Shown: in pieces, positions 3,065 through 58,808 of the stretch
How the letters are laid out: each line of letters starts with the position of its first letter
Position numbering within the stretch: position 1 is the first letter of the stretch
Origin: Cellvibrionaceae bacterium
GTDB lineage: Bacteria > Pseudomonadota > Gammaproteobacteria > Pseudomonadales > Cellvibrionaceae
Direction: 5' to 3'
DNA length: 64,000 nt
NCBI GenBank assembly: GCA_050298695.1
Contig: JBNKUQ010000002.1
Coordinates: forward strand, 3,136 to 67,135
Notes under the pieces: generated by a model
What the model was told of the DNA's origin: nothing
Database searches by the model: none
Seen by the model: only the letters and a program-made list of their open reading frames with translations
Program-made: the position numbers and the translations under genes

Positions 3065-3646
3065 GTGCTTAGGTATTCAGGTTTTACTCTAATTGAACTG
3101 ATCGTGGTGATATCTATCATTGCTATTGTGGCATCGGTGGGCGTCCCTCTTTATAACTCGTTTATTAAAGATAATAGACTGTCATCCGCTACCGTCACCT
3201 TATTAGGTGAATTTCAGTATGCACGTTCTGAAGCAGTGAAGCGAAACTCTCAGGTCACTATATGTGCCTCGAGTAACGGTAGTTCATGCAACAGTAGTGA
3301 TTGGGAGGATGGACGGTTGGTGTTTGTCGATGATGGTGCTGGCACACCCGCTAATGCGGCGAATGGTGCTGTTGATAGTGAAACCATCCTCAAGGCCTTT
3401 GGTGCAGCCTCCTCAGGAATGACCTTTACTCCAACACTGTTTACCACGAGTGGATACATTATTTTTTCTGGTGACGGGACAGTGAGCGATGTTGGTACTC
3501 TAGTGATATGTGATGATCGATCAGTACCACAAGCTATTAACATTAATATGACAGGGCAAGCCCGTAAGGCTTATGACTCCGATGAGTCAGTTGATGGTGT
3601 TGTTAATAATTTTTCAGGAGTAAATGTTACATGCCCTTCTGCCTAA
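3065..3646 (+). CDS. Type IV pilus minor pilin, GspH/FimT/FimU family (first gene of cluster 1)
   Basis: GTG start. The prepilin signal MLRYSG|FTLIELIVVISIIAIVASVG has Gly-1, Phe+1 and Glu+5. It is ~190 aa and is the leading gene of a pilV-W-X-Y1-E operon. Confidence 0.8.
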   Translation: MLRYSGFTLIELIVVISIIAIVASVGVPLYNSFIKDNRLSSATVTLLGEFQYARSEAVKRNSQVTICASSNGSSCNSSDWEDGRLVFVDDGAGTPANAANGAVDSETILKAFGAASSGMTFTPTLFTTSGYIIFSGDGTVSDVGTLVICDDRSVPQAININMTGQARKAYDSDESVDGVVNNFSGVNVTCPSA

Positions 3647-3663
3647 TACAATCCAAAAAACAC

Positions 3664-4173
3664 ATGCAAGGTTTTAGTCTTATAGAGGTTATTGTGTCTG
3701 TTTTTATTCTTGCCGTTGGCGTACTAGGTATTGCCAGCATGCAAACAGCAAGTATCAAAATGAATCAAGGCGCCTTTCATCAATCTCAGGCTAATATTCT
3801 AATTAACGATATCTTTGATCGAATGCGCGCAAACAGAGACGCTTTTTTGGCGGGTGATTATGACGATGCGAATACCGCAAATGATGTGCCTGCCGCTCAA
3901 GCATGTATTACTAGTGCGGCTGGATGTACCTCTTCTCAACTTGCCTTGCAAGATATTCGAGAAATCACAGCTTATCTTAGAGATATTAGTAATCAAGGTA
4001 ATAGCTTTGCTGCACTGATACCCGATGGTAATGCTAGGGTAGTGCGTGATACCGACACCAATACGGCGACAGTTACGGTCACTTGGAAACAAGATGTTTG
4101 GTCTCAAAATAATGAGGGCGTTGCTGTGAAAAGTATTTCGAATGAAACCTTGTCGATGTCAGTTAGGATCTAA
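3664..4173 (+). CDS. pilV: Type IV pilus minor pilin PilV (cluster 1)
   Basis: MQGFSLIEVIVSVFILAVGVLGIASMQ is a typical PilV N-terminus. I prefer ATG 3664 over the ORF-track start at 3631, which overlaps the upstream gene. Confidence 0.8.
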   Translation: MQGFSLIEVIVSVFILAVGVLGIASMQTASIKMNQGAFHQSQANILINDIFDRMRANRDAFLAGDYDDANTANDVPAAQACITSAAGCTSSQLALQDIREITAYLRDISNQGNSFAALIPDGNARVVRDTDTNTATVTVTWKQDVWSQNNEGVAVKSISNETLSMSVRI

Positions 4174-4176
4174 AAC

Positions 4177-5271
4177 GTGAATATTCAGCTTGTTCAACAT
4201 TATAAAAATAGAAAAGGGTTCACTCTGGTTGAATTAATGGTGGCAATGGTACTAGGCATTATTGTGCTTTTTGCTGTCACGCAGGTGCTTAACAATAATC
4301 GCTTGTTGACCAATACAGAAGTTTCTCTGTCGCGCATTCAAGAAGCGGGTCGTTTAGCGGTTAATTTACTGAATAAAGAGTTTCGTAAAATTGGTTATCA
4401 TGGCTGTAGTAATCCTGGCGATATGAATGTAACAGTTATGGCTACGTCGGGAGTCGACTCTGATTTTGGTGCGACATCTTTACGTGGATATGAAGTGGGT
4501 GCTGGCGGTACATTTTCTCCTGCTTTAGATGCTTCATCCAGCTTGTCGGTGATTCAGGGAACGGGTGTTAGACAAGCGAGAGTCGGAAGTGATGTTATTC
4601 AAATAAAATACGCAGACCGTACGGGAGCAAAATTAACGGGGAATACGGACCCTGTTAATGCCAATATTCAAGTAGATAGTAATCCAACAGGTTTGTCGCA
4701 AAATGATATCGCCATCGTTTCTGATTGTAACTCAGCACATATTTTTCAAATTACCAATGTAAGCACGACAGGAGGAAGCAGTATTGTAACGATGGCCCAT
4801 GCTTCGAGTAACAATAGCCCTCATAAAATGTTACCAGGTTATACAACTGACGCTGATCTCTTGTCATATTACGATGCGACTTATTTTGTTGCTGATACTG
4901 GTCGCAATGTTCGTGGCAGTATCGATGTTTATTCGCTTTACAGAAAAATGAGCAACAGTGCGACCCCGGAAGAATTAGTTGAAGGCGTTGAGTTTTTCCA
5001 AGTGTTGTATGGTGAAGATGTTGGTTCTGGCCGAATAAGGTTTGTACCTGCAGGGACATCGGGGCTTAATATGCAGTCAGTAGTGGCTATTAAGTTTGCT
5101 CTATTGATTCAAGATTTTGAAGTGGGTCAAAAAGATAACGATACTCGCTCTTACACTTTATTGGATACGACAATTCCTGCCTCTGGTACTTTATCTCATT
5201 CTGGGGGCAAATATTTAAGGAAAACTTTCACCAGTACAGTACAGCTACGAAACATACGTACATCTAATTAA
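4177..5271 (+). CDS. pilW: Type IV pilus minor pilin / assembly protein PilW (cluster 1)
   Basis: The prepilin-type N-terminus is KGFTLVELMVAMVLGIIVLFAVTQV. It is 364 aa and sits between pilV and pilX. Confidence 0.8.
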   Translation: MNIQLVQHYKNRKGFTLVELMVAMVLGIIVLFAVTQVLNNNRLLTNTEVSLSRIQEAGRLAVNLLNKEFRKIGYHGCSNPGDMNVTVMATSGVDSDFGATSLRGYEVGAGGTFSPALDASSSLSVIQGTGVRQARVGSDVIQIKYADRTGAKLTGNTDPVNANIQVDSNPTGLSQNDIAIVSDCNSAHIFQITNVSTTGGSSIVTMAHASSNNSPHKMLPGYTTDADLLSYYDATYFVADTGRNVRGSIDVYSLYRKMSNSATPEELVEGVEFFQVLYGEDVGSGRIRFVPAGTSGLNMQSVVAIKFALLIQDFEVGQKDNDTRSYTLLDTTIPASGTLSHSGGKYLRKTFTSTVQLRNIRTSN

Positions 5272-5301
5272 TTATTACTTTTTATTTTTGAGACCCTATT
5301 T

Positions 5302-5817
5302 ATGAAACAAGTCAACAAACCTCTTAATTTTTTCATTACTTATTCAAGTAAACAGTCGGGCATGACTCTTTTTGTGAGCATGATTATGCTGTTTGTGATG
5401 ACAATCTTAGGTTTGTCGACGATAGGGTCGACAACTCTTGGCGTGCAGATGGCAGCTAACAATCAATTTGAAAATATTGTATTTCAAGAAAGCGAAGATG
5501 CGATAGAAACTAGTGCTGATGATATTAATTATTTAGGCAGTGCTTATACAGCTAGTGTTATTTCCTCTACTCCCAGTTGGCCTACTAATACTGTAGAAAC
5601 TGCTTCCAGTAGTAATAATTATTTAAGTAGCAGTTCTCAGGCTAAATTTATTGGTTTTGCTAACCCCAAAGGTGAGTCGGCAGGAAGTATTCGTATGGGA
5701 ATGTCGGGATACCAACTTTATAACTATGAGATTAGAGGCACGGCTTCTTTGGCAAATAATAATGCTGAAAATACCAATGTCCAAGGTGCCTATATTATTG
5801 GTGCTCGTTTTAACTAA
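5302..5817 (+). CDS. pilX: Type IV pilus minor pilin PilX (cluster 1)
   Basis: The PilX_N-type hydrophobic helix is QSGMTLFVSMIMLFVMTILGLSTIGSTTLGVQMAANNQFE. It lies immediately upstream of pilY1. Confidence 0.7.
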   Translation: MKQVNKPLNFFITYSSKQSGMTLFVSMIMLFVMTILGLSTIGSTTLGVQMAANNQFENIVFQESEDAIETSADDINYLGSAYTASVISSTPSWPTNTVETASSSNNYLSSSSQAKFIGFANPKGESAGSIRMGMSGYQLYNYEIRGTASLANNNAENTNVQGAYIIGARFN

Positions 5818-5858
5818 TTTTTGTATCAAATCCTTTTAGTATTTTGTGGGAGATAAGA

Positions 5859-8800
5859 ATGAAAACAACTGCACTTAAAACATTTTTGGCTAGCTTGGGC
5901 CTTTATTGTTTTTGTCTCTCGCTAGCTAATGCTGATGATACAGAAATTTACTTTGGAAACAACGCTGTATCGGTTGATACGGTTCACCCTAATATTTTAT
6001 TAATTCTAGATACCTCAAGTTCAATGGAAAATATTGTATCTGGTACAGGGATGAGTCGGCTAGATAATATGAAAGGTGCGCTGCGTACTTTAATTTCTAG
6101 TACCAATAACGTCAATATGGGGTTGATGCGTTTTAGCCGAGCAGGAGGCCCTGTTCTTTATCCGGTTTCTTACATTGATCAGCCGCTCGGTGAAAGTGCT
6201 GCAGGACAAGTTTCTGCTCGTGTTAGTCAAGCGGACGATGATGCTCAACAATCTTTGCTTGGTGTCATGGAGCTAGATAGTCCATTTGTTACCATGACGG
6301 AAACGACAACGGGTGGAAACCAGTCCGTTGAATTGGAAATACTCAATGTTACTGACGATGTAGAAGAGAAAGTTCCTAGTGGAAGTTTAGATATAGGCAG
6401 CTCCGATTTGGAAATTATGCACGAGGGAAGTAGTCAGCAGTTAATCGGTTTACGTTTTACGAACACATCGGCTATTACCCCTAGTTCTACGATTATCAGT
6501 GCTGAAATTGAATTTTCAGATGATGGTGATGCTGCTAATAATGACTCTGATTTAGAAGTCACTATTCAAGCTGAAAGAGAAGGTGATACGGGTACCTTTG
6601 GTACGGGTGCGGGTCAAAATAATGTTTCATCACGTAATTTAACCACGGCTGCATCTAATTGGTTTGTGGGTAATTTTGATGCAAATGGTAAATTAATAAC
6701 GAATGATTTAGCTGCTGTGCTAAATGAGGTTATTAGTGATGGTGTTTGGAGCGAAGGCGACCCATTTACCTTTGTATTGCAATATGCCTCTGGTAATGGC
6801 TCCGCCCGTCGTGTTGCCATGAGTCGGGACCGCTCTGCAACGAATCAGCCAAAGCTTAGGATTACCTATAGCACGGGGGCGTTGGCTGTTACGCAAAATC
6901 AAACGGTTGGTTTGCGCTTTCAAAATGTTGGCGTACCCAAGGGGGCGACGATTACCAGCGCTTCTCTAGAATTTGTTGTTGCACAAGCATCATCAAATAC
7001 TACTAGCTTAACTATTAGTGCAGAAGATACAGGGAATGCTGCCGCTTTCACTAACACAGCTAATAATTTAAGTATTGGTAACCGCCCTCGTACCTCCGCT
7101 TCTGAGTCTTGGGTTCCTGGTGAATGGGAGACTATTGGTGAGGTGGTCGAAAGTGTGGATATCAGTGATGTTATTCAAGAAGTCACAAGTCATGATGATT
7201 GGTGTGGCAATAATGCGATGGCGTTATTTATTAGTGGTACGGGTCAAAGAATTGCCGAATCTTTTGAGAGTAATCCTTCTTCTGCCCCTGTTTTAAAAAT
7301 TAATTATGATCCTGATTCTGTGCCTAATAATAATAGTTGCTTTAATCGCGAGTATTCTTATCGTGTTGAAAATAGTTCGGATGATGCAGAGCAAGAGTCG
7401 GGTCAGGATGTTTATTTGGTTAGTTCCGACTTAGAGTTATCTGATGATGGGAGTAAACTACAAGAGATAGGTATTCGTTTTAGTGGTGTACAAATTCCTA
7501 AAAACGCTGAAATTCAATCGGCCTATTTAGAATTTACGGCAGACGGTTCGAGTACAGATTCAACGTCCTTAATTATCTATGGCGATGATGTCGATGACTC
7601 TCCAACCTTTGGTGCATCATCTAATACGGTGATAGGTCGTACCAAAACGGCTGCTTCGGTATCATGGAGTAATGTAGCTAGCTGGGATGCTAGCGCCACT
7701 TATCAGTCCCCTGATATTACTGCTATTGTGCAAAGCATTGTTAATAGAAATGGTTGGAGCGCGGGAAATGGAATGTCCTTTATCATCACAGGCTCAGGCA
7801 CACGTAGAGCGTTTTCGTACAACGGCAGCGCAGGTCTGGCTCCAAGGTTGGTGGTACAAGCAAAAAGTGATGATGTCACTTCGTCAACCAGAACGGTAAG
7901 AGATGAATTACTCGAAATTGTTGACGGTATTCAATATAAATCAGGCACACCAATTGTTGGAACTTATTACGAAGCCGCTCTCTATTTTCGAGGAGAAAGT
8001 GTTGACTTCGGTAGACAAAGAGGCAATGACGGATCAAGTCGTAGAGAGCATACACGAGTTTCACATCCAGATTCCTATATGAGTGGTGTTGTTAACCGCG
8101 ATGCAGGTTGTACAGATGACAACCTAAGTTCCACGGACTGTAGGACTGAAAATATTAGCGGCAGTCCCGTTTATATTTCTCCTATAACTGAGTCTTGTCA
8201 AAAAAATCATATCGTTATATTGACTGATGGTCAGGCGAGTTATAACGCTGCAGAAGATAAGGTAAAAGCCATGATTGGCTCGAGTACTTGTGCTGATACA
8301 GGCAATCAAGCTTGTGGTCCCGAATTAGCAACCTGGTTAAATACGGTAGATCAGGCTCCAGGAGGAGCTATTACTGGTGACCAAACGATTACTACTCACA
8401 CGATTGGATTTAACTTTACCGGTGATTGGATTAAGTCAATCTCGGAAAATGGTGGTGGTGATTTTTATGAAGCTTCAACGGCAGATCAATTAGCGAATGC
8501 CTTTGAATCGATAGTGACAGAAGCGTTGAAGACTAATTCGACGTTTGTATCTCCAGCGGTAGCGATTAATCAGTTTAACCGACTGAATCATTTAGATAAC
8601 ATTTATTTCGCTGTGTTTAAGCCAACAGAAGAAGCGTTATGGCAAGGCAATGTTAAAAAATATCGTTTAAGTGGTACTGAAAATGATATTACCGATGTCA
8701 ATGGTAATCTTGCTATTGATGAGTTAACAGGCTTTTTTAAAGACTCATCTCAAAGCTACTGGTCTTCTAGTGTCGACGGGCCTGATGTGCCCCTGGGTGG

Positions 8801-10526
8801 TGTTGTTGAAAATTTACCAGGGCACCCTCGAAATACATATACGTTTACCGGTTCGAGTCTAGACCTTACTGATAATTCCAACGCTTTACATACCATTGCT
8901 GGTGTTTATAACAGTGGCGTTACTAAAACGATGTTAGGTGATGCAACAATGACGGATCAGGCTAGAGAAGATTTATTAGACTGGATTACAGGGCGTGATG
9001 TTCTAGATGAAGATAATGACTCTAGTACGAGTGATCGTCAATCCATGGCCGATCCTCTGCATTCAAAACCCATTGTTTTTACTTATGCTGGAACCAGTGC
9101 AAGCCCAAGTTTAGCCTTGCTCTTTGGGACTAATGATGGACATTTTCGTGCGGTTAATGCTACCAATGGTCAGCAGTTGTGGTCATTTATTCCTCCAGAA
9201 CTGCTACCAGTCTCGAAAACCTTGTATGAGAATATTAGCGCTCAGCATCCTTATGGTGTCGATGGCTCTCCAGTATTGTGGGTGAATGACCCCGATTTTA
9301 ATGGTACCGAAGTTGACTTAACGGGTGCGAATGACTTTGCTTATGTGTATTTTGGAATGCGCAGAGGGGGGCGAAATTTCTATGCACTTGATGTGACCGA
9401 TATCAATGAACCAAAAATTAAATGGAGAATAGAAGGGGGAGTCGGTGATTTTGTTGAGTTAGGTCAGACGTGGTCACGTCCGATTAAAACTAAAATAGGC
9501 ATTCGTTCTGGTAACACTACAGAAGAAATTGATGTTTTGATATTTGCGGGCGGCTATGACCCAGATCAAGATAATGTCAATATCCGCACTGCAGATACCC
9601 AAGGTAGGGCTATTTTTATTGTTAATGCGATTACTGGAAATCTGATTTGGAGTGGAGGTCCTGGCGGTAGTTTCACCGAAAACTTTGCTGACATGCAATA
9701 TAGCATTCCAGCCTCTCCTGCAGTTGCGGATCTCAATAACGATGGTTTAGCAGATCAAATTTATGTGGGTGATATGGGGGGACAGATTTGGCGCTTTGAC
9801 ATTACCAATGGAGAACAATTGAGTGGATTAATCAGTGGCGGTGTGATAGCCGATGTATCAGTGAGTAATGATGCCGCTAACACAAGACGATTCTACCACT
9901 CTCCCGATTTGGCGTTAATTAAAAACGGTGCTGGGAACCTCTCATTAACCGTATTAATTGGGTCCGGTTATCATGCCCACCCTCTTGATACGCAAGTAAC
10001 GGATCGTTTTTATAAAATTGATGTGGCTAACCCTTTTGAAGCTCCAGGGTCTTACGTAAAACTAACGGAGACAGACCTGTACGATGCTTCGGATAATGAA
10101 CTAGGGAGTAGTGATACTAGTACAGCAGCGGCAGCTCAGGCGACCTTTGCGACAAAGAATGGATGGTACGTTACCATGCCAAATCTTGGAGAAAAGGTGC
10201 TGTCATCTCCATTAACGATTGATGGTCAAGTTGTTTTTGTGACTTACGAGCCTAAAGCGAACACATCTGGTTGTACGGTTCAGCCTGGTACCTCTCGTGA
10301 GTATGTACTTAGAGTTAGTAACGCTACGCCAACCATCGATTTTAATAATGATGGTGTATTAAATGAAGATGATCGCTCGGAGACTTTGAATACAGGTAGT
10401 ATTGTTGATGAACCCGTTATGGTCTTTACAGGTGATGGTGGTGGTACAACCTTCTTAGGTACAGAAAAAGGCAGTTTAAGTATTGGCACAGACCGTGTGA
10501 TCAGAACATTTTGGTATCAAGAATAG
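5859..10526 (+). CDS. pilY1: PilY1-like pilus tip adhesin (cluster 1). It is unusually long (~1555 aa), with a vWA domain interrupted by three repeat modules.
   Basis: The signal peptide is MKTTALKTFLASLGLYCFCLSLANA, followed by DDTEIYF. The vWA MIDAS motif is ILLILDTSSSM, with GTPIVGTYYEAALYF and VILTDG far downstream. The C-terminal PilY1 propeller carries a Ca-site-like ADLNNDGLADQIYVGDMGGQIWRFD. ATG 5859 is preferred to the ORF-track start at 5844. Confidence 0.85.
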   Translation: MKTTALKTFLASLGLYCFCLSLANADDTEIYFGNNAVSVDTVHPNILLILDTSSSMENIVSGTGMSRLDNMKGALRTLISSTNNVNMGLMRFSRAGGPVLYPVSYIDQPLGESAAGQVSARVSQADDDAQQSLLGVMELDSPFVTMTETTTGGNQSVELEILNVTDDVEEKVPSGSLDIGSSDLEIMHEGSSQQLIGLRFTNTSAITPSSTIISAEIEFSDDGDAANNDSDLEVTIQAEREGDTGTFGTGAGQNNVSSRNLTTAASNWFVGNFDANGKLITNDLAAVLNEVISDGVWSEGDPFTFVLQYASGNGSARRVAMSRDRSATNQPKLRITYSTGALAVTQNQTVGLRFQNVGVPKGATITSASLEFVVAQASSNTTSLTISAEDTGNAAAFTNTANNLSIGNRPRTSASESWVPGEWETIGEVVESVDISDVIQEVTSHDDWCGNNAMALFISGTGQRIAESFESNPSSAPVLKINYDPDSVPNNNSCFNREYSYRVENSSDDAEQESGQDVYLVSSDLELSDDGSKLQEIGIRFSGVQIPKNAEIQSAYLEFTADGSSTDSTSLIIYGDDVDDSPTFGASSNTVIGRTKTAASVSWSNVASWDASATYQSPDITAIVQSIVNRNGWSAGNGMSFIITGSGTRRAFSYNGSAGLAPRLVVQAKSDDVTSSTRTVRDELLEIVDGIQYKSGTPIVGTYYEAALYFRGESVDFGRQRGNDGSSRREHTRVSHPDSYMSGVVNRDAGCTDDNLSSTDCRTENISGSPVYISPITESCQKNHIVILTDGQASYNAAEDKVKAMIGSSTCADTGNQACGPELATWLNTVDQAPGGAITGDQTITTHTIGFNFTGDWIKSISENGGGDFYEASTADQLANAFESIVTEALKTNSTFVSPAVAINQFNRLNHLDNIYFAVFKPTEEALWQGNVKKYRLSGTENDITDVNGNLAIDELTGFFKDSSQSYWSSSVDGPDVPLGGVVENLPGHPRNTYTFTGSSLDLTDNSNALHTIAGVYNSGVTKTMLGDATMTDQAREDLLDWITGRDVLDEDNDSSTSDRQSMADPLHSKPIVFTYAGTSASPSLALLFGTNDGHFRAVNATNGQQLWSFIPPELLPVSKTLYENISAQHPYGVDGSPVLWVNDPDFNGTEVDLTGANDFAYVYFGMRRGGRNFYALDVTDINEPKIKWRIEGGVGDFVELGQTWSRPIKTKIGIRSGNTTEEIDVLIFAGGYDPDQDNVNIRTADTQGRAIFIVNAITGNLIWSGGPGGSFTENFADMQYSIPASPAVADLNNDGLADQIYVGDMGGQIWRFDITNGEQLSGLISGGVIADVSVSNDAANTRRFYHSPDLALIKNGAGNLSLTVLIGSGYHAHPLDTQVTDRFYKIDVANPFEAPGSYVKLTETDLYDASDNELGSSDTSTAAAAQATFATKNGWYVTMPNLGEKVLSSPLTIDGQVVFVTYEPKANTSGCTVQPGTSREYVLRVSNATPTIDFNNDGVLNEDDRSETLNTGSIVDEPVMVFTGDGGGTTFLGTEKGSLSIGTDRVIRTFWYQE
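6216..7862 (+). repeat. Three tandem protein-level repeat modules inside pilY1 of cluster 1 (about aa 125-343, 344-489 and 505-673 of the ORF-track protein)
   Basis: Recurrent blocks are SSDLEIMHEGSSQQLIGLRFTNTSAITPSSTIISAEIEF, QTVGLRFQNVGVPKGATITSASLEF and SSDLELSDDGSKLQEIGIRFSGVQIPKNAEIQSAYLEF. Each is followed by a tail: GDPFTFVLQYASGNGSARRVAMS, NNAMALFISGTGQRIAESF or GNGMSFIITGSGTRRAFSY. Confidence 0.7.
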
Positions 10527-10549
10527 TGTTTGCAAATAAGGGTTTAAGT

Positions 10550-10987
10550 ATGAAACAACGTAATAATGGCTTTTCATTGATAGAGTTGATGATTGTTGTA
10601 GGAATCATCGCTATATTAGCGGCAGTAGTGATTCCTAGTTATCGGGACAGTGTTCGTGCAGGTAATCGAAGTGATGCTCAATCGGCATTGGTTGGTTTGT
10701 CTCAAGAAATGGAAAGACACTTTGCAAGCAATAATACATATACCACAGCTATTTCTGGCAGCGCTCCAACTGCCCCCTCAATTTTTCCTTCACAGGTTCC
10801 TTTAAATGGTGGTGATGCAACTTATAATTTAACGGTTCAGTCTGTCAGTGCTAGTGGCTATACTCTAAGAGCGACTCCCGTAGGTTCTCAGGCCGGTGAT
10901 GGTTATTTAGAATTACTGTCAACGGGAGTGCGACGCTGGAATGAAAATGATGGTGGTGTAAAGCAATGTTGGGATAGCAGCTGCTAA
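10550..10987 (+). CDS. pilE: Type IV pilus minor pilin PilE (cluster 1)
   Basis: MKQRNNG|FSLIELMIVVGIIAILAAVVIPSYRDSVRAGNRSDAQSAL. It has a C-terminal Cys pair (CWDSSC) and is the last gene of the operon. ATG 10550 is preferred to 10511. Confidence 0.8.
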   Translation: MKQRNNGFSLIELMIVVGIIAILAAVVIPSYRDSVRAGNRSDAQSALVGLSQEMERHFASNNTYTTAISGSAPTAPSIFPSQVPLNGGDATYNLTVQSVSASGYTLRATPVGSQAGDGYLELLSTGVRRWNENDGGVKQCWDSSC

Positions 10988-17901: not shown

Positions 17902-18819
17902 TCATCTTGAAAGAACACCAGGCACTTGCTGAATCAAAAATTCCATTAGCGCTTTAACCGCAGGCATTACCCCATACCGTGAAGGCATCAGAATACTGAG
18001 TTCCGCATTGCCAGCTGTCCATTCGGGCAGTATTCGGTGTAAAAATCCTGAGGCAATTTCCGTTCGGCATATATAGGCCGGCAACGCCACAATGCCTAGT
18101 CCCTGAATAGCGGCGTGTTTAAGCGTTTCCATATCATCGCTGGACAAGCGCGGACTAAAGGGTATCGATGCCTGTATGCCATTAGCGTGGTGCAGATTCC
18201 AGTGACCTGATGCAGGCTGCCAGCCCAGCTTGAGTCCACTGTGGTTGGATAAGTCCTGTGGTAATGTGGGCGTGCCTGCTTTTTCCAGATAGAGCGGCCC
18301 CGCAAACACATGCCACGGCGTGGCGATGAGTTTGCGTTGAATCAGGCTTGAATCAGGCAACGCTTCGTGATGCCCCCGGATAGCCAGATCAATGCCGGAC
18401 TCCACCAGATCAACATTCTGATTGGTCACTTGCTGAATAATATCCACCTTTGGATGCTCACGCAGGAACTGCGCAATCAGATCTTTGAGCAGAAACTGCG
18501 CCACCGTCACCGAGCAACTAATACGGATACGGCCAGAAAGCACATTGGTCTGACGTTTTACCGCAGCTTCGGCGGCTTCCACTTCGTTCAACATGATTCG
18601 GGCACGCTCGTAAAATGCCTGCCCGGTTTCTGTGATGGCGAACTTTCGGGAGCTACGTTGCAGCAAGCGCACCCCAAGCCGCTCTTCAAGATGATTTATG
18701 TGGCGACTCAGGCGGGACTTGGGCAGATCAAGTAGTCGTGCCGCGGGGGAAAAGCCACGCTGTTCCACCACATGAACAAAGTAAAAGTAATCATTTAAAT
18801 CAATCAAGGTCCACCTCAA
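17902..18819 (-). CDS. LysR-family transcriptional regulator
   Basis: The N-terminal wHTH is DLNDYFYFVHVVEQRGFSPAARLLDLPKSRLSRHINHLEERLGVRLLQRSSR, and the protein is ~300 aa. The true start may be the TTG at 18807 (MIDLND...). The gene is visibly GC-rich. Confidence 0.85.
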   Translation of the reverse strand: MRWTLIDLNDYFYFVHVVEQRGFSPAARLLDLPKSRLSRHINHLEERLGVRLLQRSSRKFAITETGQAFYERARIMLNEVEAAEAAVKRQTNVLSGRIRISCSVTVAQFLLKDLIAQFLREHPKVDIIQQVTNQNVDLVESGIDLAIRGHHEALPDSSLIQRKLIATPWHVFAGPLYLEKAGTPTLPQDLSNHSGLKLGWQPASGHWNLHHANGIQASIPFSPRLSSDDMETLKHAAIQGLGIVALPAYICRTEIASGFLHRILPEWTAGNAELSILMPSRYGVMPAVKALMEFLIQQVPGVLSR

Positions 18820-18927
18820 ATACTACTGTCGTTCCAAATGTAGAACGAAGAGTATCATTTTTGCCACTTTTTGCCACCATCGTTCCACTGGTAAAGTATG
18901 CAATATCAACAGAACAGGAGCTATCCC

Positions 18928-19815
18928 ATGTCAGCACTAACACAAAACACACGCACAGAGAACAGCAGCCTTCTGTATTCACCCCTGGTAAGCGGGGAGT
19001 CTCTACAGATTGGCAACGGGTTTGATGCGCTGAGCTTTAAACAGCAGCACTTTCAAGGTCTGATGGATCCCTTGGTGATGGCCGATCACTATACGATGAC
19101 CAGCCCGACCTTTGGCATTCATCCCCATGCGGGCATGTCGGCCGTATCAATACTATTCGAAGACAGTCAGGGCAGTTTTCATAACCGGGATTCGCTCGGT
19201 AACCACATCGATTTAAAGCCGGGTGATCTCTATTGGCTACAGGCTGGCGGTGGCGCTATTCACGATGAAGCCCCCCGCCCAGGCGCCCGCACCCACGGTT
19301 TGCAGGTGTTTGTAAATCTGCCGGCGCGACTTAAACACGGCGCACCAGGTTCGCTGCACGTTAAGGCCGGGGATATGCCCTTACTGCACGGTGACGACTT
19401 TCGTGTACGGGTAATGTTGGGGGAGAGTGGCGGGGTAAAAGGTGCCGACTCCCCTGCGCTGCCAGCCACTATCCTGGATGGCAAGCTAAATGCCGGTGGG
19501 CTCTTTTCGCATACGCTGGCCACTCATCACAGTGCCTGGGTTTACCCGGTGAACGGCTCCCTTCAGGTGACGCACCAAAATACCTCGATAACCATACCCG
19601 GCGGAAAGTCACTCAGCCTGCGCAATGAAGGCGAGGTGACAGACGTTGTGCTTCAGGCGGCCGCTAACAGTGAAACCCACTTTGTATTGATTGGTGCCGA
19701 ACCAGTCCGGGAAAGTTTTGTTCAACGCGGGCCTTTTGTCATGAGTACAACTGAGGAGCTGGATCGTGTTGAGGCCGACTATCGCGCGGGAAAACTGGGC
19801 TCAATAAGTAACTGA
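18928..19815 (+). CDS. Pirin-family protein
   Basis: The cupin metal site region is GIHPHAGMSAVSILFEDS...LQAGGGAIHDE. ATG 18928 is preceded by CAGGAG (the ORF-track start is 18898). It is divergent from the LysR gene. Confidence 0.8.
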   Translation: MSALTQNTRTENSSLLYSPLVSGESLQIGNGFDALSFKQQHFQGLMDPLVMADHYTMTSPTFGIHPHAGMSAVSILFEDSQGSFHNRDSLGNHIDLKPGDLYWLQAGGGAIHDEAPRPGARTHGLQVFVNLPARLKHGAPGSLHVKAGDMPLLHGDDFRVRVMLGESGGVKGADSPALPATILDGKLNAGGLFSHTLATHHSAWVYPVNGSLQVTHQNTSITIPGGKSLSLRNEGEVTDVVLQAAANSETHFVLIGAEPVRESFVQRGPFVMSTTEELDRVEADYRAGKLGSISN

Positions 19816-50652: not shown

Positions 50653-50703
50653 GTTTCTCGTTGTTAACAATATTATTTATTGAAAAATATCAGGTGTTTA
50701 AGT

Positions 50704-51648
50704 ATGGCAGCACAGATCAAATTGGCTAACCCAAGAGGTTTTTGTGCTGGTGTTGATAGAGCAATTGATATTGTAAATCGTGCGCTTGATGTCTATGGTC
50801 CACCAATTTATGTGCGTCATGAAGTGGTCCACAATAAATTTGTTGTGGAATCTCTTCGTGAGCGTGGAGCTATTTTTGTTGATGAGTTAGAAGAAGTACC
50901 TGACAATAAAATTGTTATTTTCAGCGCTCACGGTGTATCCAAAGCGGTAAAAAAGAATGCTGAAGAGCGTGAGCTTCCCGTTTTTGATGCGACTTGTCCG
51001 CTAGTGACAAAGGTACATTTGGAAGTGACTAAATACAGCAAAAGTGGAACGGAGTGCATTTTGATTGGTCATGAAGGGCACCCTGAAGTTGAAGGCACCA
51101 TGGGGCAGTATGACAGTCGTTACGGTGGGGCTATTTATCTTGTCGAGGATGAACAGGATGTAGAAGCGCTTGAGGTTAAGCACCCTGAGTCGCTCTATTA
51201 CGTCACGCAAACGACCTTATCTATGGATGACACAGCAAAAGTCATTGCTGCTCTTCGGAAGAAATTTCCAGAAATTCAAGGCCCGCGGACGGATGATATT
51301 TGTTATGCCACTCAGAACCGTCAGGATGCGGTAAAACAACTGGCCTTGGAGTGCGATTTGGTGCTTGTTGTGGGGTCTCCCAATAGCTCTAACTCTAATC
51401 GCTTGCGCGAATTGGCAGAGCGTTGCGGTGCAGAGTCTTACTTGGTGGACTCTGCTGAGGATATTCAATCTGCATGGCTTGTAAACAAAGCGACGATTGG
51501 GGTGACAGCGGGTGCCTCTGCACCTGAGATATTGGTTCAAGAGGTGATCTCAGCGCTAGAAACCTTAGGTGCCTCGGCACCAGAAGAAATGCCTGGAGAG
51601 CCTGAAAATATTAGCTTTTCCTTGCCGAAAGCCTTGCGTCAGGGATAA
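50704..51648 (+). CDS. ispH: 4-hydroxy-3-methylbut-2-enyl diphosphate reductase
   Basis: [31 protein letters not shown] and [10 protein letters not shown] motifs are present. ATG 50704 is preferred to 50680. Confidence 0.95.
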
Positions 51649-51795
51649 TCTTTCTGTTTTGAGTTTGCGGATCAACCATAGTTTTTTTTTGTATCAATAA
51701 TTAAATATCCATATCTTTTTCGTCTAACCATTAAAAACTACCGTTTGTCGGCGAATACTGTCCATTGAGCTAGTGCAGAGTATAGTTTCGTCCAT

Positions 51796-52320
51796 ATGAA
51801 AGCAAAAGGACTGATGGGTATGAAAAGAAACGGTTTTACTCTCATTGAACTACTCGTAACAATTACTTTACTAGGTATATTGTTGGGTGTAGGTATACCC
51901 AGTTTGCAAACCTTAATGGCGAATATGACCATTCGCTCCAATACCGAAAAATTAATTAACTCTCTAGCCTATGCCCGTGGCGAGGCCGTTGCACGTGTTA
52001 AAAATGTATCCGTACGTTCCGCTAGCGTTACCGAAAGTGGTGGCGCAGTGACATCCGTTGATTGGAGCGACGGTTGGATGGTATTTGTCGATGAAGCTGG
52101 CAATTGCTCTTTTGATGCTGGAGATGAAGTCTTGCGGGTCATCGATATCAGTGCCGATGATGTCACAATCACTCCGCCTAGTAATACAACGGCATGTATC
52201 AGGTTCAATCGCTTGGGTGAGAATGACAATGCAACAGCGGCTGGTTTCGGTTTGTCTAAAACGGGCGCAAGTTCCGCAGCAATTACGGTTTCCAATACCG
52301 GTTACACATCTAAGGATTAA
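51796..52320 (+). CDS. fimU: Type IV pilus minor pilin, GspH/FimT/FimU family (first gene of cluster 2)
   Basis: MKRNG|FTLIELLVTITLLGILLGVGIPSLQTLM. It is the leading gene of the pilVWXY1E operon next to ispH, so the symbol is given by positional analogy with P. aeruginosa. Confidence 0.75.
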   Translation: MKAKGLMGMKRNGFTLIELLVTITLLGILLGVGIPSLQTLMANMTIRSNTEKLINSLAYARGEAVARVKNVSVRSASVTESGGAVTSVDWSDGWMVFVDEAGNCSFDAGDEVLRVIDISADDVTITPPSNTTACIRFNRLGENDNATAAGFGLSKTGASSAAITVSNTGYTSKD

Positions 52321-52332
52321 TGGGTAAATACT

Positions 52333-52851
52333 ATGATTTTCTCTAAATCGAATCAGTTGGGTTCTAGTCTTGTCGAAACCATGGTGTCCTTACTGCTTAT
52401 GGGGGTGGGTTTACTGGGTGTTTTAACGCTACAAGCTAAGGGTTTAAATAGTAATCAGCGGGCGGTATTTGTGACAGAAGCACAAATCATTGCCCAAGAT
52501 ATGGCTGACCGAATTATGGCTTTTGGGAGTACAGATTCTAATGCTATCAGTAATGCGGTTGCTAGTAGTGGTTTCTATAATGGCATCAGTATTGCCAAAG
52601 GTAATGAACTAGTGGAATCAAGCTGCTCGGTTGCTTCTCCCTGTAATTCTAATGCCGATATCAGAGCTTACGATGCCAATGAGTGGTTGCGCCTCATGAG
52701 AAACTCTTCTCTACCTCGAGCAAGAGCTACGGTTAGTTGGGCAAGTCAGGTATACAGTATCAGGGTGATGTGGGATCAAGAGCGTATAGGAGAAGGTGAG
52801 GTAGAGTGTGGTACCGACAATTGCTTCACTATGGAGGTTAGACTTCCATGA
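52333..52851 (+). CDS. pilV: Type IV pilus minor pilin PilV (cluster 2)
   Basis: The PilV-type N-terminus is GSSLVETMVSLLLMGVGLLGVLTLQAKGLNSNQ. Confidence 0.8.
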   Translation: MIFSKSNQLGSSLVETMVSLLLMGVGLLGVLTLQAKGLNSNQRAVFVTEAQIIAQDMADRIMAFGSTDSNAISNAVASSGFYNGISIAKGNELVESSCSVASPCNSNADIRAYDANEWLRLMRNSSLPRARATVSWASQVYSIRVMWDQERIGEGEVECGTDNCFTMEVRLP

Positions 52852-53990
52852 TCGCATTACCTGTTAATTGTACCCGTCAGTTAGGGGTAAGTTTGGTCGA
52901 GTTATTGGTCTCTATGGTGATTGGCCTGTTCATTATGGCCGGCGTATTACAGTTGTTCAGCACCACTACTCAAAACTCTGTAGCGGTAACAGGTCTTTCC
53001 CGTATTCAAGAAAATACTCGTTATGCTTTTTCACGGATAGCGGAAGATATTGCACAGTCGGGTAATTTAGGTTGTATGTCCGCTTCTATTGCTACCAATT
53101 ATTCATCCAGAGAACCGATTACTAATATGCTTTCTGGCGTCACAGATGCCAATGCTTACGATTTTTTATCTACTATATGGGGTAAGGATGGGGCGAGCTC
53201 TGGAAGTGTCAATACCGAAGATGAAGATGAAGATGGTGTTGCTCCAGGTACAGACCGATTTCGTATCCGCTATGTTAATCATGTGGTTAGATTCGATGTA
53301 ATTGATATGAGTGATACTAGCGTAACGGTTAGCTATAATGCATCCGATAGTGCTGAGACAGCCACACTGCCACAGAGTGGGCAAATTGTAGCGGTAACTA
53401 ATTGTTCGCAGGGTGCGGTTTTCACGGCAACAGGTATTGATATAGGTACGACGACAAACGACGAGGGAGATATTACTTATACAAACGAGGCAGTTATTAC
53501 TCATACAACTGAGACGGAAAATATTGCCGTTCCAAATTCAACGTCTGAAAAAAATATCAATACGTTTATTCCCAACACTAGTGCATCGGCGGCAAATGTT
53601 ATTTCGCCTTTCTATTTGTACGCGGGTTCAACGGGTTCTTACGAGTACACAGTAGGCACTGCGGTAGGTGCGGCAGCCGCCTGCAACAGTGCTACTGCAC
53701 CACAAAATTGTGCCTTGTTTCGTAGTGACTCTGGAACACCACCAGAAGAAATCGTCAAAGGTGTTCACGATATTCAAGTCGAATATGGTTGGGTTGACTC
53801 GGCTGGTAACTTACGCTTTGCGGCAGCCCCAGATTCTGCTCAGTGGCCGTTTATCGACAGAATGAAAGTTACGATGGCTTTTAATTCAATGGATAATGTG
53901 ATCACTAATGGCAATGCCATTGATCAATCGACAGATGGTCTTCTTAAAAAGTCTTACACGCGAACCTTTAATTTATACAACCAACTTTAA
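52848..53990 (+). CDS. pilW: Type IV pilus minor pilin / assembly protein PilW (cluster 2)
   Basis: LGVSLVELLVSMVIGLFIMAGVLQLFSTTTQN. It is 380 aa and shares an ATGA overlap with pilV. Confidence 0.8.
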   Translation: MIALPVNCTRQLGVSLVELLVSMVIGLFIMAGVLQLFSTTTQNSVAVTGLSRIQENTRYAFSRIAEDIAQSGNLGCMSASIATNYSSREPITNMLSGVTDANAYDFLSTIWGKDGASSGSVNTEDEDEDGVAPGTDRFRIRYVNHVVRFDVIDMSDTSVTVSYNASDSAETATLPQSGQIVAVTNCSQGAVFTATGIDIGTTTNDEGDITYTNEAVITHTTETENIAVPNSTSEKNINTFIPNTSASAANVISPFYLYAGSTGSYEYTVGTAVGAAAACNSATAPQNCALFRSDSGTPPEEIVKGVHDIQVEYGWVDSAGNLRFAAAPDSAQWPFIDRMKVTMAFNSMDNVITNGNAIDQSTDGLLKKSYTRTFNLYNQL

Positions 53991-54007
53991 TTATATTAGG
54001 CCAGCTT

Positions 54008-54646
54008 ATGAATATACCAAGAGGGTCAGTATCAACTCCTATCAATCAGGTACAACAACGAGGAGTTGTTCTAGTCATATCGTTAGTGATGCTTTTGGTG
54101 ATGACCATTGTTGGTGTCACCATGATAACGGGTGCAACTTTACAAGAACGCATGGCGGGTAATAATCGTCAACTTGCTATTGCAAGACTAAATGCCGAGT
54201 CTGCATTACGCGAAGCCGAAGAAGAGCTTGACGATTTAAATATAGCTACAAGTGCTGATCCTGTGGCGACGATACTATCGCAATTCTCTACTGAAGATGA
54301 TGCTTACGCCGTTGCAGTTTATGCCAATGGCTTCACCTATGACCCGCTCAGTTTTACAGTATCCGATGCTAGTGAATGGGCGTCAGCTTCTGCAGAAGGC
54401 TCCGTTTTAACAGAAGCAGCTACCGCTTTGGAGGGGACTGGAGCAAATGCCCCTCGCTATGTGATCGAATACATTGGGCGGATGGCTATTAATGACCCCA
54501 GTCCTGATATCGATATCAGTGTAGAGAAAAAAGATCTTGTTAGTACCATTCCCCATGCTTTTCGTATTACAGCGATTGGTTATGGAAGAGATAATAAAAT
54601 CAATGCAATTTTGCAAAGTATTTATTCTACCGCTGACAATCTTTAA
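54008..54646 (+). CDS. pilX: Type IV pilus minor pilin PilX (cluster 2)
   Basis: The PilX_N pattern is QQRGVVLVISLVMLLVMTIVGVTMITGATLQERMAGNNRQLAIARLNAESALREAE. Confidence 0.8.
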   Translation: MNIPRGSVSTPINQVQQRGVVLVISLVMLLVMTIVGVTMITGATLQERMAGNNRQLAIARLNAESALREAEEELDDLNIATSADPVATILSQFSTEDDAYAVAVYANGFTYDPLSFTVSDASEWASASAEGSVLTEAATALEGTGANAPRYVIEYIGRMAINDPSPDIDISVEKKDLVSTIPHAFRITAIGYGRDNKINAILQSIYSTADNL

Positions 54647-54670
54647 GAATAGTGTAGAACGAGGACAATT

Positions 54671-57600
54671 ATGAAAGCTAAACAGTTGATACGGTATTTA
54701 TTGAGTCCGGTAGTTCCGCTTATAAGTATTCATGTCTTTGCTGCGCCAGGGGTATTACAAGATGCGCCGTTAATAGTTTCTATAGAGCCAGTTCAGCCTA
54801 ATATTTTATTTATGTTAGATGATTCTGGGAGTATGGCAAGTTTACTTTTGTATTCCAATAGTGCGGTAGAAGTTGATGGGGTAGATTCCAATGCTCTTCA
54901 AAACAACTTGGATTTTACCCCAGACAATTCTGGTGAACGAAAAAGGCTGTGCCCAGCCTACAATGTGTTGGCATATGACCCAACGCAAATATACTCCCCT
55001 TGGCCTGGGGTTGATGAAAATGGAGTTGCTTTTCAACCAGTAACTGATCTGACAAGTGTCAGGCGTGACCCTTATATTGCCTCAGATACCGTTAACATTT
55101 CTAACAATCGTTATGTTTTAGATGATCTGAACGATGGTATTTATGTTGTGGGTGATTGTGATAGCGATAATGTACGCTCGATTGCTGATGAGACAGATCC
55201 AGTAGCTAGGACTAATTATGGGAACTGGTATGTTTATTATCGCTCGCGTCAATTGACGGCAAAAGCTTCTCTCTCGAATATAATTTATGGAAGCCGCGCT
55301 CGTGTTGGTGCAACGGGGCTTTTTAAGAAAAATGGCGATGCTTTAAACCGTACAAAAGGAGGTGTATTAATTAAAGATATTGATGACTCTCAAGAAGATG
55401 AGACTTTAGCTGCTGTGGCGGCTCAAAATAAGGCTGCACTATTGCAATATATTCACGGCACTATTGTTTCGGATACTGGAGCAGGTACACCATTGAAGAG
55501 AACCTTGTTGCAAGCGGGTAGGTACTTTAATTCGGAAGAAAGCCCCGACCCATATTTCTTTGGTGTAGGGAAAGAACATGCTGAGTCAGAGAATACTATC
55601 AATAGCAATACGCCTATTCTGAATGCTGCCAATAGTGGTGCATGTCAACAAAACTTTGCAGTTTTGTTTTCTGATGGTTTTATGAATAGAGATTCAAGCC
55701 CTGGTTTGGGAAATGTAGACGGTGATAATGGACCTACATTTGCCGATACATATAGTAATACCCTGGCGGACATCGCTATGTATTACTTTGAAAATGATTT
55801 AGTTCCTGATGGTAGTGAGGCAAATCAATTGAATGACTATGTTCGCGCTAGAGACCCGCGCACAGGGTCTACAATTAATCGCCAACATATGACCACCTAT
55901 ACTATTGCTTTTGGCGTTAATGGTAATTTATCTGGTAATCCAGGAGAGGTTGGTTTTGATGAATGGCCAGAGCCAGTAGAACAATCTCCTAGCTCAATTG
56001 ATGATATGCGACATGCTGCTTGGAATGGTAGGGGCCGTTTTTTAAACTCTAGTAACCCACGCAAGTTAAATGAGGATTTGGACAGTATTTTTGACGATAT
56101 TTATGGACGCACAGAAGGTACAGCGGCAGCAGCTACTGTTAGCTCTGGCCTTCTTGAAACCACTACCCAGTTATTTACAGCAAAGTATGATTCATCTGAT
56201 TGGAGTGGTGATTTAACCTCTCAATTATTTGACAGCAATGGCTTGCTTGAAGAAGAAAATGAATGGTCAGCAAAAGGTCGGTTAAATAAAAGGGTAGAAG
56301 ATGATAATGGTGATACCTCTTATACCAATAGCCGCACTATACTGACTTATAGTGTTGATCTTAATGACTTTAATAACTTATCGAATACTGGTGGAGTCGT
56401 ATTTGATTACGCCAATTTGCATACAAGCCAACAGGCTATATTGACATCTGCGACCTTTGATAGCTGGACGGAAACAGATGAAAATTTTGCTATTGCGTTA
56501 GTCGATTATCTAAAAGGCAGTAAAATTTATGAAACCGGCGTGATTACGGATTATATTCTAGATAATGAAGACGCCGATGATTATCCAGATGTTTTTCGTT
56601 CGCGTAATGGTAATTACTTGGGAGCGATTGTTAACTCCTCCCCACAATATGTAGGGCCGCCTAACGATAAATATCCTGATCAAATTCAAAGTAGTAGTGC
56701 ACTCTATAACAGTTTCAAAACAAGCCGTGCCAATCGAACACCTTTGGTTTATGTCGGCTCTAATGATGGAATGTTACATGCTTTTAATGCTGCGGTTAAT
56801 GTCAGTAATGAAGGTGATGTATCAGTTTCTAATGACGGAGGGGAGGAAGTTTTTACGTATATACCAGGTTTGCTAACCGAAAAACTACCTAACCTTGCGA
56901 GTCCTAACTACCAGTATCAAGCTTATGTGGACGCAACCCCAACCGTAAGGGATGTTTATATAGGTACAGATAGCACTAGTGGTGCAAGTACTTCTGTAGA
57001 TGCCTGGCGGACTTATTTAGTGGGAGGGTTTCGTAGCGGTGCTAAGGGCATTTATGTATTGGATGTCACCGATCCAGTAGGTACTTTCGCTTCGAGTATT
57101 ACCACTGATGCTCAAAAAGCTGCATCAATTGTTAAATTCGAATATACCCATCCAGATTTAGGCTACACCTTTAGCCGTCCACAAATTGCTAAGTTAAACG
57201 ATGGCAAGTGGGTGGCTATTTTTGGTAATGGTTATAATGCGGATGGGGACGGTAGAGCAAAATTATTTATTGTTGATCTTGCAACGGGGCAAGCCGTGGA
57301 TATTCTTGATACGGGTGTGGGTAATAATGCTGGTGGCTCTTGCTTGGACGAGGACGCAAGTGATGGCGATGCGGCTAGTGATTGTAATGGTCTTTCTTCG
57401 CCTACGTTGGTTGATTTGAATGGAGACTTTAAAGTCGATCGTGTTTATGCCGGTGACTTACATGGCAATATGTGGGCTTTTGACATTGAAAATACTAGCT
57501 CAGATGCTTGGACAAGTAATAAATTGTTTACCGCTAATCGAAGTGGAGATGGAGAGTGTACTAGTACCACTTGCCGTCAACCTATTACGGTAAAACCTGA

Positions 57601-58309: not shown

Positions 58310-58349
58310 GTACATAGAATCTTTAATCGCAGATAAATTGGATGCATAA

Positions 58350-58808
58350 ATGGTGACATTAGAACGCTCAGAAAATATAAAGGGATTTACGCTTGTAGAA
58401 CTACTAGTGGTGGTGGTTATCCTCTCTATTTTAGCCGCAGTAGCAATACCATCTTACCAGGCATATATAGAGGATGGCCGACGTTCAGAGTGCCAGGCTT
58501 TTGCTCTGGATATTGCTTCGCGACAAGAGCGTCATTGGACGCAACAATCAACTTACGGTAATTTAGATGCCGGTTCTCCTGAGTCATCAGAAGGCGCAGG
58601 AGATGCCGTGGCTGCGAATAATGATCTAGGTATGCCTAATGGTAATCAAAGTGAAAATGGTTATTGTAGTGCTATCGTTGTAGGAGGTGATAGCTTTACT
58701 ATTCAGGTAACAATGACGCCTGCGGATACGGAGTGTGGAGTACTAACCTTAAGAAACACTGGAGAGCGCACAAGCGAACGAGGTAATGCTGCTGAGTGTT
58801 GGCGTTAA
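58350..58808 (+). CDS. pilE: Type IV pilus minor pilin PilE (cluster 2)
   Basis: KG|FTLVELLVVVVILSILAAVAIPSYQAYIEDGRRSECQAF. It has C-terminal Cys residues and is the last gene of the operon. Confidence 0.8.
   Translation: MVTLERSENIKGFTLVELLVVVVILSILAAVAIPSYQAYIEDGRRSECQAFALDIASRQERHWTQQSTYGNLDAGSPESSEGAGDAVAANNDLGMPNGNQSENGYCSAIVVGGDSFTIQVTMTPADTECGVLTLRNTGERTSERGNAAECWR

Follow-up and report, generated by a model that had tools for sequence, protein, structure and literature searches.

The N-terminal half of a giant PilY1 protein, encoded in a 64,000-nucleotide stretch of DNA from a Cellvibrionaceae bacterium (assembly GCA_050298695.1, contig JBNKUQ010000002.1; the whole stretch is called the window below), combines the two parts of a vWA domain with an insert of about 560 residues that consists of three mutually related β-sandwich modules. 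Several lines of evidence strongly suggest that the two parts form one vWA domain that closes around the insert and, as far as sequence alignments can tell, one of the modules is itself lodged inside another. The protein belongs to the first of two minor-pilin clusters in the window (cluster 1), and the same architecture recurs in many Gammaproteobacteria.

The open reading frame (ORF) spans nucleotides 5844 to 10526 of the forward strand, and the ATG at 5859 (MKTTALK...) is the likely start of a protein of 1555 amino acids; residues are numbered from it, and the residue numbers used in a preliminary description of the same DNA are higher by 5. The motifs quoted in that description were all found where it placed them, namely ILLILDTSSSM at residue 46, MGLMRFSR at 87, GTPIVGTYYEAALYF at 696 and VILTDG at 786, as well as GLRF/GIRF at 197, 351 and 538, DDVEE...SSDLE at 166/181 and DDAEQ...SSDLE at 508/522. 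A complete MIDAS (metal ion-dependent adhesion site) can be assembled from the two parts of the vWA domain, and all five of its residues, Asp51, Ser53, Ser55, Thr697 and Asp790, are invariant among 112 homologues. The insert that separates these parts, residues 113–670, lies between β3 (βC) and α2.

To model the region, AlphaFold2 (AF2) was run on residues 25–934 with an alignment of 49 sequences (model numbering plus 24 gives protein numbering), which yielded a mean predicted local distance difference test (pLDDT) score of 84.8 and a predicted TM-score (pTM) of 0.68. Ahead of the insert, the model contains β1 (residues 45–50), α1, β2 (86–91) and β3 (99–105), with a pLDDT of about 79–93 over the N-terminal part of the domain; an all-β stretch occupies residues ~113–670 and is followed by two helices, Thr697, a helix, β4 (783–789), and then helices alternating with β5 and β6. 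Apart from the insert this is the canonical order of vWA secondary structure elements, the C-terminal part supplying α2, Thr697 (of the sequence GTP), α3, β4 with Asp790 (of VILTDG), β5, β6 and the last helix. The Pfam scores behave in a compatible manner. The intact protein scores 26.8 bits against VWA_2 (cut-off 27) and 18 bits against VWA (cut-off 23.8, profile positions 1–47); upon in silico excision of residues 113–670, the scores become 30.8 and 24.7 bits (VWA profile positions 1–76), both above cut-off, and the VWA match crosses the splice junction. Furthermore, a profile of 20 insert-deleted homologues matched the structure 4rck in two colinear pieces (E-value 4e-8) and 3ibs in three colinear pieces that include the TDG strand. 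A Foldseek search with the whole model aligned vWA structures only over the N-terminal 59–79 columns, which is expected with a gap of 560 residues and is no gauge of closure, and an AF2 model of the insert-excised vWA domain as a single sequence was uninformative (pLDDT 31.8). Taken together, secondary structure order, confidence scores and sequence profiles strongly suggest a single vWA domain, as had been proposed; pLDDT is high in both halves, although closure itself is read from the order of the elements rather than from contacts.

The three modules of the insert are demonstrably related. Whole-protein self-BLAST returned the identity match only, and the repeats emerged from pairwise comparison of segments, in which BLASTP aligned modules 1 and 2 with an E-value of 3.6e-15 (28% identity), modules 1 and 3 with 9e-20 (32%), and modules 2 and 3 with 3e-23 (35%). 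A hidden Markov model (HMM) of 174 positions, built from homologues, detects exactly three copies in the giant PilY1 and none in the other ORFs of the window. The significance of the internal repeat, on which the preliminary description had staked its claim, is thus established; its picture of three modules in simple tandem is not. Modules 1 and 3 are complete, the former being all-β in the AF2 model, whereas the core of module 2 lacks the first ~33 positions of the profile, and the same truncation recurs in every three-module relative. The segment immediately after β3, residues 113–153 (segA), was compared with the modules by means of family profiles: it aligns with modules 1 and 3 over their N-terminal ~35 residues (hhalign Prob 96–97.5%, E-values 1e-9 to 1e-11), yields no alignment with the module 2 core and, as seen by direct alignment, immediately adjoins that core in relatives that have only two modules. 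Because the module 2 core starts at HMM position 34, and segA supplies the missing strands and is contiguous with the core in the two-module proteins, the array, judged by these alignments, is nested: the N-terminal strands of module 2 come first, followed by the whole of module 1, the module 2 core and module 3. The segA profile match, the truncation of the core and the contiguity in two-module relatives rule out three simple tandem repeats. The boundaries proposed earlier need correction as well, since the stretch then taken for module 1 (residues 120–338 in the present numbering) takes in the module 2 piece at residues 113–153. Two cysteines, Cys449 (in the WCG of module 2, nucleotides 7203–7205) and Cys494 (nucleotides 7338–7340, just before module 3), are invariant in the 112 sequences, which suggests a disulfide bond that would tie module 2 to the linker. 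Additional conserved cysteines are found in the vWA domain's C-terminal half, at residues 751, 761, 780, 811 and 819.

The original assignment of the protein to PilY1 is supported by its C-terminal region and by the gene order (Table 1); it would be the tip and priming factor of a type IVa pilus minor-pilin operon. Pfam PF05567 matches residues 1128–1318 (E-value 1.6e-9, 37.6 bits against a cut-off of 28.1), and the C-terminal domain of Pseudomonas aeruginosa PilY1 (PDB 3hx6_A), the only clear sequence relative in the PDB, matches residues 1063–1319 (E-value 2.1e-12). Within this β-propeller region, DLNNDGLAD conforms to the EF-hand-like Ca-binding pattern of the PilY1 propeller, Dx[DN]x[DN]Gxx[DE], and we take it to be the equivalent of the Ca site of the P. 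aeruginosa protein. The genes are arranged as fimU-pilVWX-pilY1-pilE, the order of a minor-pilin operon with PilY1. The mature N-terminus, ADDTEIF, is kept across the 112 homologues, and cleavage of the predicted signal peptide would occur after residue 24. An identical protein is on record in NCBI assembly GCA_050299675.1 (contig JBNKWH010000193.1). Pfam and NCBIfam scans found no catalytic domain in the protein, which places its modules outside the CAZy definition of a carbohydrate-binding module (CBM).

Table 1. Features of the two minor-pilin/PilY1 loci in the window (coordinates are window positions; residue numbers refer to the 1555-residue PilY1)
Feature	Coordinates	Strand	Basis or remark
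Minor pilin genes upstream of pilY1: fimU-like (GspH), pilV-like, pilW, pilX	3065..5817	+	Pfam GspH, N_methyl, Tt1218-like, PilW, PilX_N
pilY1 of cluster 1	5859..10526	+	1555 aa plus stop; ORF list and translation
Predicted signal peptide, aa 1-24 (MKTTALKTFLASLGLYCFCLSLANA then DD)	5859..5930	+	Read from sequence
vWA N-terminal part, aa 25-112: β1, MIDAS DxSxS, α1, β2, β3	5931..6194	+	Pfam VWA_2/VWA aa 45-96; AF2
MIDAS D51, S53, S55	6009-6023	+	Invariant in 112 sequences
segA, aa 113-153 (VSARVSQADDDAQQ...MELDSPFVTM): putative displaced N-terminal strands of module 2	6195..6317	+	hhalign; two-module relatives
Module 1, aa 154-338: complete DNRLRE/CBM96-like β-sandwich within module 2	6318..6872	+	HMM positions 4-174, E 9e-43
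Module 2 core, aa 339-484, without first ~33 profile positions	6873..7310	+	HMM positions 34-173, E 3e-50
Short linker, aa 485-493	7311..7337	+	Cys494 directly after
Module 3, aa 494-670: complete module	7338..7868	+	HMM positions 2-172, E 3e-61
vWA C-terminal part, aa 671-895	7869..8543	+	AF2 order; Thr and Asp invariant; 4rck/3ibs profile matches; hhalign to paralogue
PilY1 C-terminal β-propeller region, aa 1063-1555	9045..10523	+	PF05567, 3hx6 match, FG-GAP hints
Ca-site-like motif DLNNDGLAD, aa 1291-1299	9729-9755	+	Regular expression
pilE-like minor pilin downstream	10511..10987	+	Pfam N_methyl and ComP_DUS
Second operon	fimU-like 51796; pilV-like 52333; pilW 52848; pilX 54008; pilY1 54671-58309; pilE-like 58350		

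Abundant homologues rule out that the giant PilY1 is unique. With its N-terminal 914 residues as the query, 664 clusters were retrieved at E ≤ 1e-5, and more than 100 of them contain proteins of 1,550–1,600 residues that cover 97–100% of the query; such names as they bear do not go beyond "PilC/PilY family type IV pilus protein" and "VWA domain-containing protein". In species-representative genomes, complete chromosomes included, at least 251 matched stretches encode a relative. Labelling of the proteins of 80 such genomes with type-specific HMMs revealed three patterns: segA and the module 2 core in direct contact, followed by module 3 (two modules; 17 proteins, for example in Paraglaciecola, Aliiglaciecola, Fluctibacter and Granulosicoccaceae); the arrangement described here, with module 1 between segA and the core (three modules; 27 proteins, for example in Motiliproteus, Methylococcales and metagenome-assembled genomes (MAGs) of Pseudomonadales); and an arrangement with two successive copies of module 1 at that position (four modules; 6 proteins, for example in Neptunomonas, Motiliproteus and Thiotrichaceae MAGs). 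The other 30 of the 80 proteins carry variant or partial labellings of these patterns. When the general module HMM is applied to the same set, two modules are counted in 35 proteins, three in 40 and four in 5. As traced by these labels, the growth in copy number from two to three to four is all at one internal site, inside module 2. Five PilY1-like representative proteins with five to six matched module stretches were also noted, reaching 2,400–2,900 residues (2436 and 2891 residues); four of the five match the vWA profile as well as that of the PilY1 C-terminus, and the protein of 2891 residues matches the C-terminal profile only. The array can thus become considerably longer than in the 80 genomes.

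The lineages that possess the architecture include Alteromonadaceae, Halieaceae, Motiliproteus, Methylococcales and large sulfur bacteria, that is, free-living marine heterotrophs, methanotrophs and sulfur oxidisers without a shared host. Cultured carriers are Motiliproteus sp. MSK22-1, with three modules, Glaciecola, Agaribacter and Alteromonas flava, with two, and Pseudomaricurvus alkylphenolicus. A few carriers of three or four modules bear implausible labels (Salibacteraceae, "uncultured Enterobacteriaceae", a Klebsiella pneumoniae MAG and a Dichelobacter nodosus MAG), and these records probably stem from mis-binning or mislabelling of metagenome bins and not from true occurrence in the named taxa. 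With regard to the earlier suggestion that the protein is out of the ordinary, the architecture turns out to be common in Gammaproteobacteria, the same insertion point being widespread among long homologues, but it is not an already annotated one: the domain databases have no annotation for it. A search of the literature found no PilY1 reported with a CBM- or DNRLRE-like array and no characterised member of the architecture, in agreement with the preliminary description, whose author was aware of none.

The module itself extends far beyond pilus proteins. At E ≤ 1e-3, a profile of 32 PilY1 modules matched 20,170 representative proteins (50%-identity clusters), a number that falls to 15,584 at E ≤ 1e-10. 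Only some 10–12 of 148 newly returned top matches look like PilY1, the remaining carriers being secreted multidomain proteins with PKD, Ig-like, fn3, HYR, metallophosphoesterase, CotH or LTD domains, whose modules are 31–50% identical to module 3 of the window; a single protein can contain as many as 8 copies, and the longest has 5,880 residues. In Pfam and NCBIfam, no model matches the module with a score above its cut-off. Nor was a solved structure detected by sequence, as PDB searches with the module profile, module 3 and a non-PilY1 three-module protein returned only a match to a low-complexity PT linker. The module is therefore a candidate for a new domain or CBM-like family, perhaps a large sister of CBM96 and DNRLRE.

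On the structural side, the modules found by Foldseek their closest match in a chondroitin sulfate-binding CBM (8wab; E-value 2e-5, prob 1.0, TMt 0.62), and the founder of the alginate-binding family CBM96 (7vbo; E-value 2e-3, prob 1.0, TMt 0.52) was also recovered, which is indicative of a CBM96-type fold. PNGase F, the pro-BMP9 prodomain and BcsB were returned as well, and the structural neighbors given for CBM96 are the same set (PMC9971899). Single modules align almost end to end with the NCBIfam model DNRLRE_dom (NF033679; profile positions 19–163 of 164), with E-values of 2.9e-4 for the module 2 core and 1e-4 for module 3, and 20 of the 32 modules, which come from 11 family proteins, reach E ≤ 0.01 for the same model, the best value being 4.8e-8. 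These matches make a weak but consistent case, at the level of the superfamily, for a distant relationship between the modules and the DNRLRE/CBM96 fold. The likeness to DNRLRE-type domains noted earlier thus appears real at that level but does not extend to membership in the curated families, whose HMM cut-offs are not reached in the giant PilY1.

How might such a protein have arisen, and what would it do? We envisage a vWA domain with a complete MIDAS whose βC–α2 loop received an array of DNRLRE/CBM96-like modules, which yields a domain nested in a second that is itself nested in a third, and an array that would expand as further copies enter its first module at one and the same position. 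The modules could act as lectin-like, multivalent binders of extracellular polymers, such as polysaccharides, exopolysaccharide (EPS) or particle surfaces, and, on this proposal, would sit at the pilus tip next to the metal-dependent site of the vWA domain; retraction of the pilus might then drag the cell onto these substrates or signal that they have been touched. We infer such binding because the nearest relatives bind polysaccharide, Arg and Trp residues are conserved, the other hosts of the module are secreted, and there is a precedent in the putative sugar-binding N-terminal domains of the Myxococcus xanthus proteins PilY1.1 and PilY1.2 (PMC13190605). In detail, the positions conserved in the modules across taxa are the Arg residues of GLRF, SxR and GxR, two Trp, and Ala. 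An extension of the pilus-tip adhesin that binds polymers or glycans multivalently is the best explanation of the array, one toward which we lean by a modest degree. A broader proposal, which we put forward only tentatively and would not expect to hold in full, is that the module family is a general polymer-binding unit found in proteins that bacteria secrete, and that it was recruited into the vWA domain of PilY1 proteins of aquatic Gammaproteobacteria, where copy number, by expansion at one nested hot spot, tunes the specificity or avidity of the tip. The observed expansion from 2 to 4 modules in the counted genomes, and to 5–6 stretches in some of the PilY1-like representative matches, would fit such tuning.

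Several observations weigh against the polymer-binding interpretation and the family assignment that underlies it. The whole-protein score against DNRLRE_dom is 25.2 bits (cut-off 34), and single modules score 11.5–22.1 bits with E-values of 1e-4 to 0.2, all below the cut-off; the Pfam CBM96 model (PF24517) matches module 3 only (E-value 3e-4, 20.9 bits against a cut-off of 26) and just one of the 32 family modules. The modules are strongly acidic, with isoelectric points of 4.1–4.3 and 6–12 Lys and Arg residues as against 16–28 Asp and Glu, unlike the alginate site of CBM96, a Lys/Arg-rich groove that comprises, in TM6-N4, K10, K22, K25, K27, K31, R36 and Y159 (PMC9971899). Nor does the fold by itself imply that the ligand is a carbohydrate, because the same fold serves as a protein prodomain in BMP9 and as a putative poly(hydroxybutyrate)-binding domain. 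Finally, the closure of the vWA domain and the packing of segA on module 2 are deduced from secondary structure order, confidence values and sequence profiles.

The acidity of the modules, which have no obvious basic groove, speaks for a structural or mechanical role, in which the array would be a spacer or shield that places or masks the MIDAS, or a set of force-bearing sandwiches that tunes mechanosensing. A copy number of 2 to 4 fits a length-tuning element, and the vWA domain of P. aeruginosa PilY1 is reportedly mechanosensitive, with a lateral insert domain of undefined role (PMC11525922). The geometry is relevant here, too. The preliminary description assumed that the array projects from the MIDAS face, a placement that finds no support here. 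The AF2 order shows the insert leaving the vWA domain at βC–α2, not beside the MIDAS, and in canonical vWA and I domains this connection is on the opposite face, where the domain termini lie; we infer that the array is no less likely to be placed laterally, in the manner of the P. aeruginosa insert. Nevertheless, a spacer would not need Arg, Trp and Ala positions that stay invariant from module to module and from taxon to taxon, and occurrence in thousands of secreted multidomain proteins, together with PKD, Ig and enzyme domains, is typical of binding modules, so that we consider a purely mechanical role unlikely. We give still less credence to modules that bind a protein, be it on the surface of a host, prey or partner cell, or a secretin or minor pilin, instead of a glycan. 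It is true that the TGF-β/BMP prodomains, which share the fold, clamp a protein ligand, and that vWA pilus adhesins such as Streptococcus sanguinis PilB bind proteins (PMC8179133), but the nearest relatives in both structure and sequence are polysaccharide-binding CBMs, and the marine heterotrophs, methanotrophs and sulfur oxidisers that carry the array have no common host. As for an artefact, either a fusion created by assembly or gene calling or two unrelated half-vWA remnants that flank an independent repeat protein, its one point of support is that Pfam reports only the first ~50 residues of the vWA domain in the intact protein. However, an unbroken ORF with this order of domains recurs in more than 100 independent homologue clusters, and at least 251 genomic stretches, some of them in complete chromosomes, encode a relative. 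This recurrence, the invariance of MIDAS residues on both sides of the insert, the longer, above-threshold vWA match restored by excision, the colinear profile matches to vWA structures and the high AF2 confidence in both halves effectively refute an artefact, and we regard it as hardly credible.

A second complete minor-pilin/PilY1 operon is present in the region 50680–58808 of the window (Table 1), immediately downstream of ileS (46818), lspA (49658) and ispH/lytB (50680). The spot that follows ileS-lspA-ispH is, we presume, the canonical position of the P. aeruginosa operon; because the second operon occupies it, the giant PilY1 would belong to an extra, non-syntenic cluster between yhdP and darP-mgtE-rapZ-rpoN. 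In the paralogous PilY1 of the second operon, ~55–60 residues separate RVGATGLF (β2) from GTPLKRT, in accord with the ~55 given before, and the vWA domain from α2 onward aligns with the post-insert half of the giant PilY1 (hhalign Prob 96.6%, E-value 6e-10). A Pfam scan of this paralogue reports no vWA domain. Its vWA domain (window 54671–56320, residues ~43–480) is interrupted elsewhere, by ~160 residues between the DxSxS strand (NILFMLDDSGSM) and β2 (RVGATGLF), and this interruption matches the β1/α1 insert domain described for P. aeruginosa PilY1. Elsewhere in the window, positions 17902–19815 have a GC content of 0.52, compared to ~0.42 window-wide, and contain two divergently transcribed ORFs of 305 residues that, by eye, resemble a LysR-type regulator and a pirin; they are not repeats of each other and match no RNA family, an Rfam scan of the entire window having returned no matches.

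The N-termini of PilY1 proteins set what type IV pili bind and sense, and only two elements have been recognised in them, a survey of 2026 having identified no conserved N-terminal domains besides vWA (vWFA) and DUF4114 (PMC13190605). The array described here amounts to a widespread third N-terminal element that domain databases do not see. If the polymer-binding interpretation is correct, type IV pili would be equipped with an array of lectins directed at polysaccharide particles or EPS, and the array would be a candidate for the means by which the pili of many marine and other aquatic Gammaproteobacteria attach to polysaccharide-rich surfaces. Independently of its ligand, the locus is a clean natural case in which domains have repeatedly been inserted into domains and all expansion takes place at one internal position, and it points to a very large family of secreted-protein domains that deserves a model of its own and a binding study.

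Comparison with characterised systems helps to define what distinguishes the giant PilY1. P. aeruginosa PilY1 (PA4554) shares with it the minor-pilin operon, the N-terminal vWA domain with a MIDAS, and the β-propeller with an EF-hand-like Ca site, and its vWA domain also carries an inserted domain (PMC11525922); the cluster 2 paralogue in the window is of this type, whereas the giant protein is ~400 residues longer and has its insert of three CBM-like modules at a different site, βC–α2. Variant 1 of Acinetobacter baumannii ComC likewise represents a lineage-specific insertion within the vWA domain of a type IVa pilus tip adhesin, a finger-like protrusion on which adhesion, twitching and DNA uptake depend (PMC10374093), but this finger is about 90 residues long and Tyr-rich, with no repeated β-sandwich and no relationship to CBMs. 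The Gram-positive adhesins RrgA and S. sanguinis PilB also place a vWA adhesion domain with inserted β-structures at the pilus tip (PMC8179133), although the arms there are short structures on either side of the MIDAS and not independent domains in several copies. The M. xanthus proteins PilY1.1 and PilY1.2 have a putative sugar-binding domain at the PilY1 N-terminus, and exopolysaccharide has been proposed as its ligand (PMC13190605); this domain, DUF4114, belongs to another family and replaces the vWA domain rather than being inserted into it, and it is neither repeated nor nested. CBM96 (TM6-N4 of the alginate lyase Dp0100, 7VBO), 8WAB and NF033679 have the β-sandwich fold and its structural neighbors in common with the modules by Foldseek, whereas the latter score below threshold, are acidic, are not joined to a carbohydrate-active enzyme, and form a far larger sister family (more than 15,000 clusters at E ≤ 1e-10) without a model of its own. 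The modularity of PilC/PilY1 proteins (PMC8179133) and functional insertions in the vWA domain of pilus tip adhesins (PMC10374093, PMC11525922) are known already; the nested, CBM-like array adds to these and has no counterpart in the literature searched.

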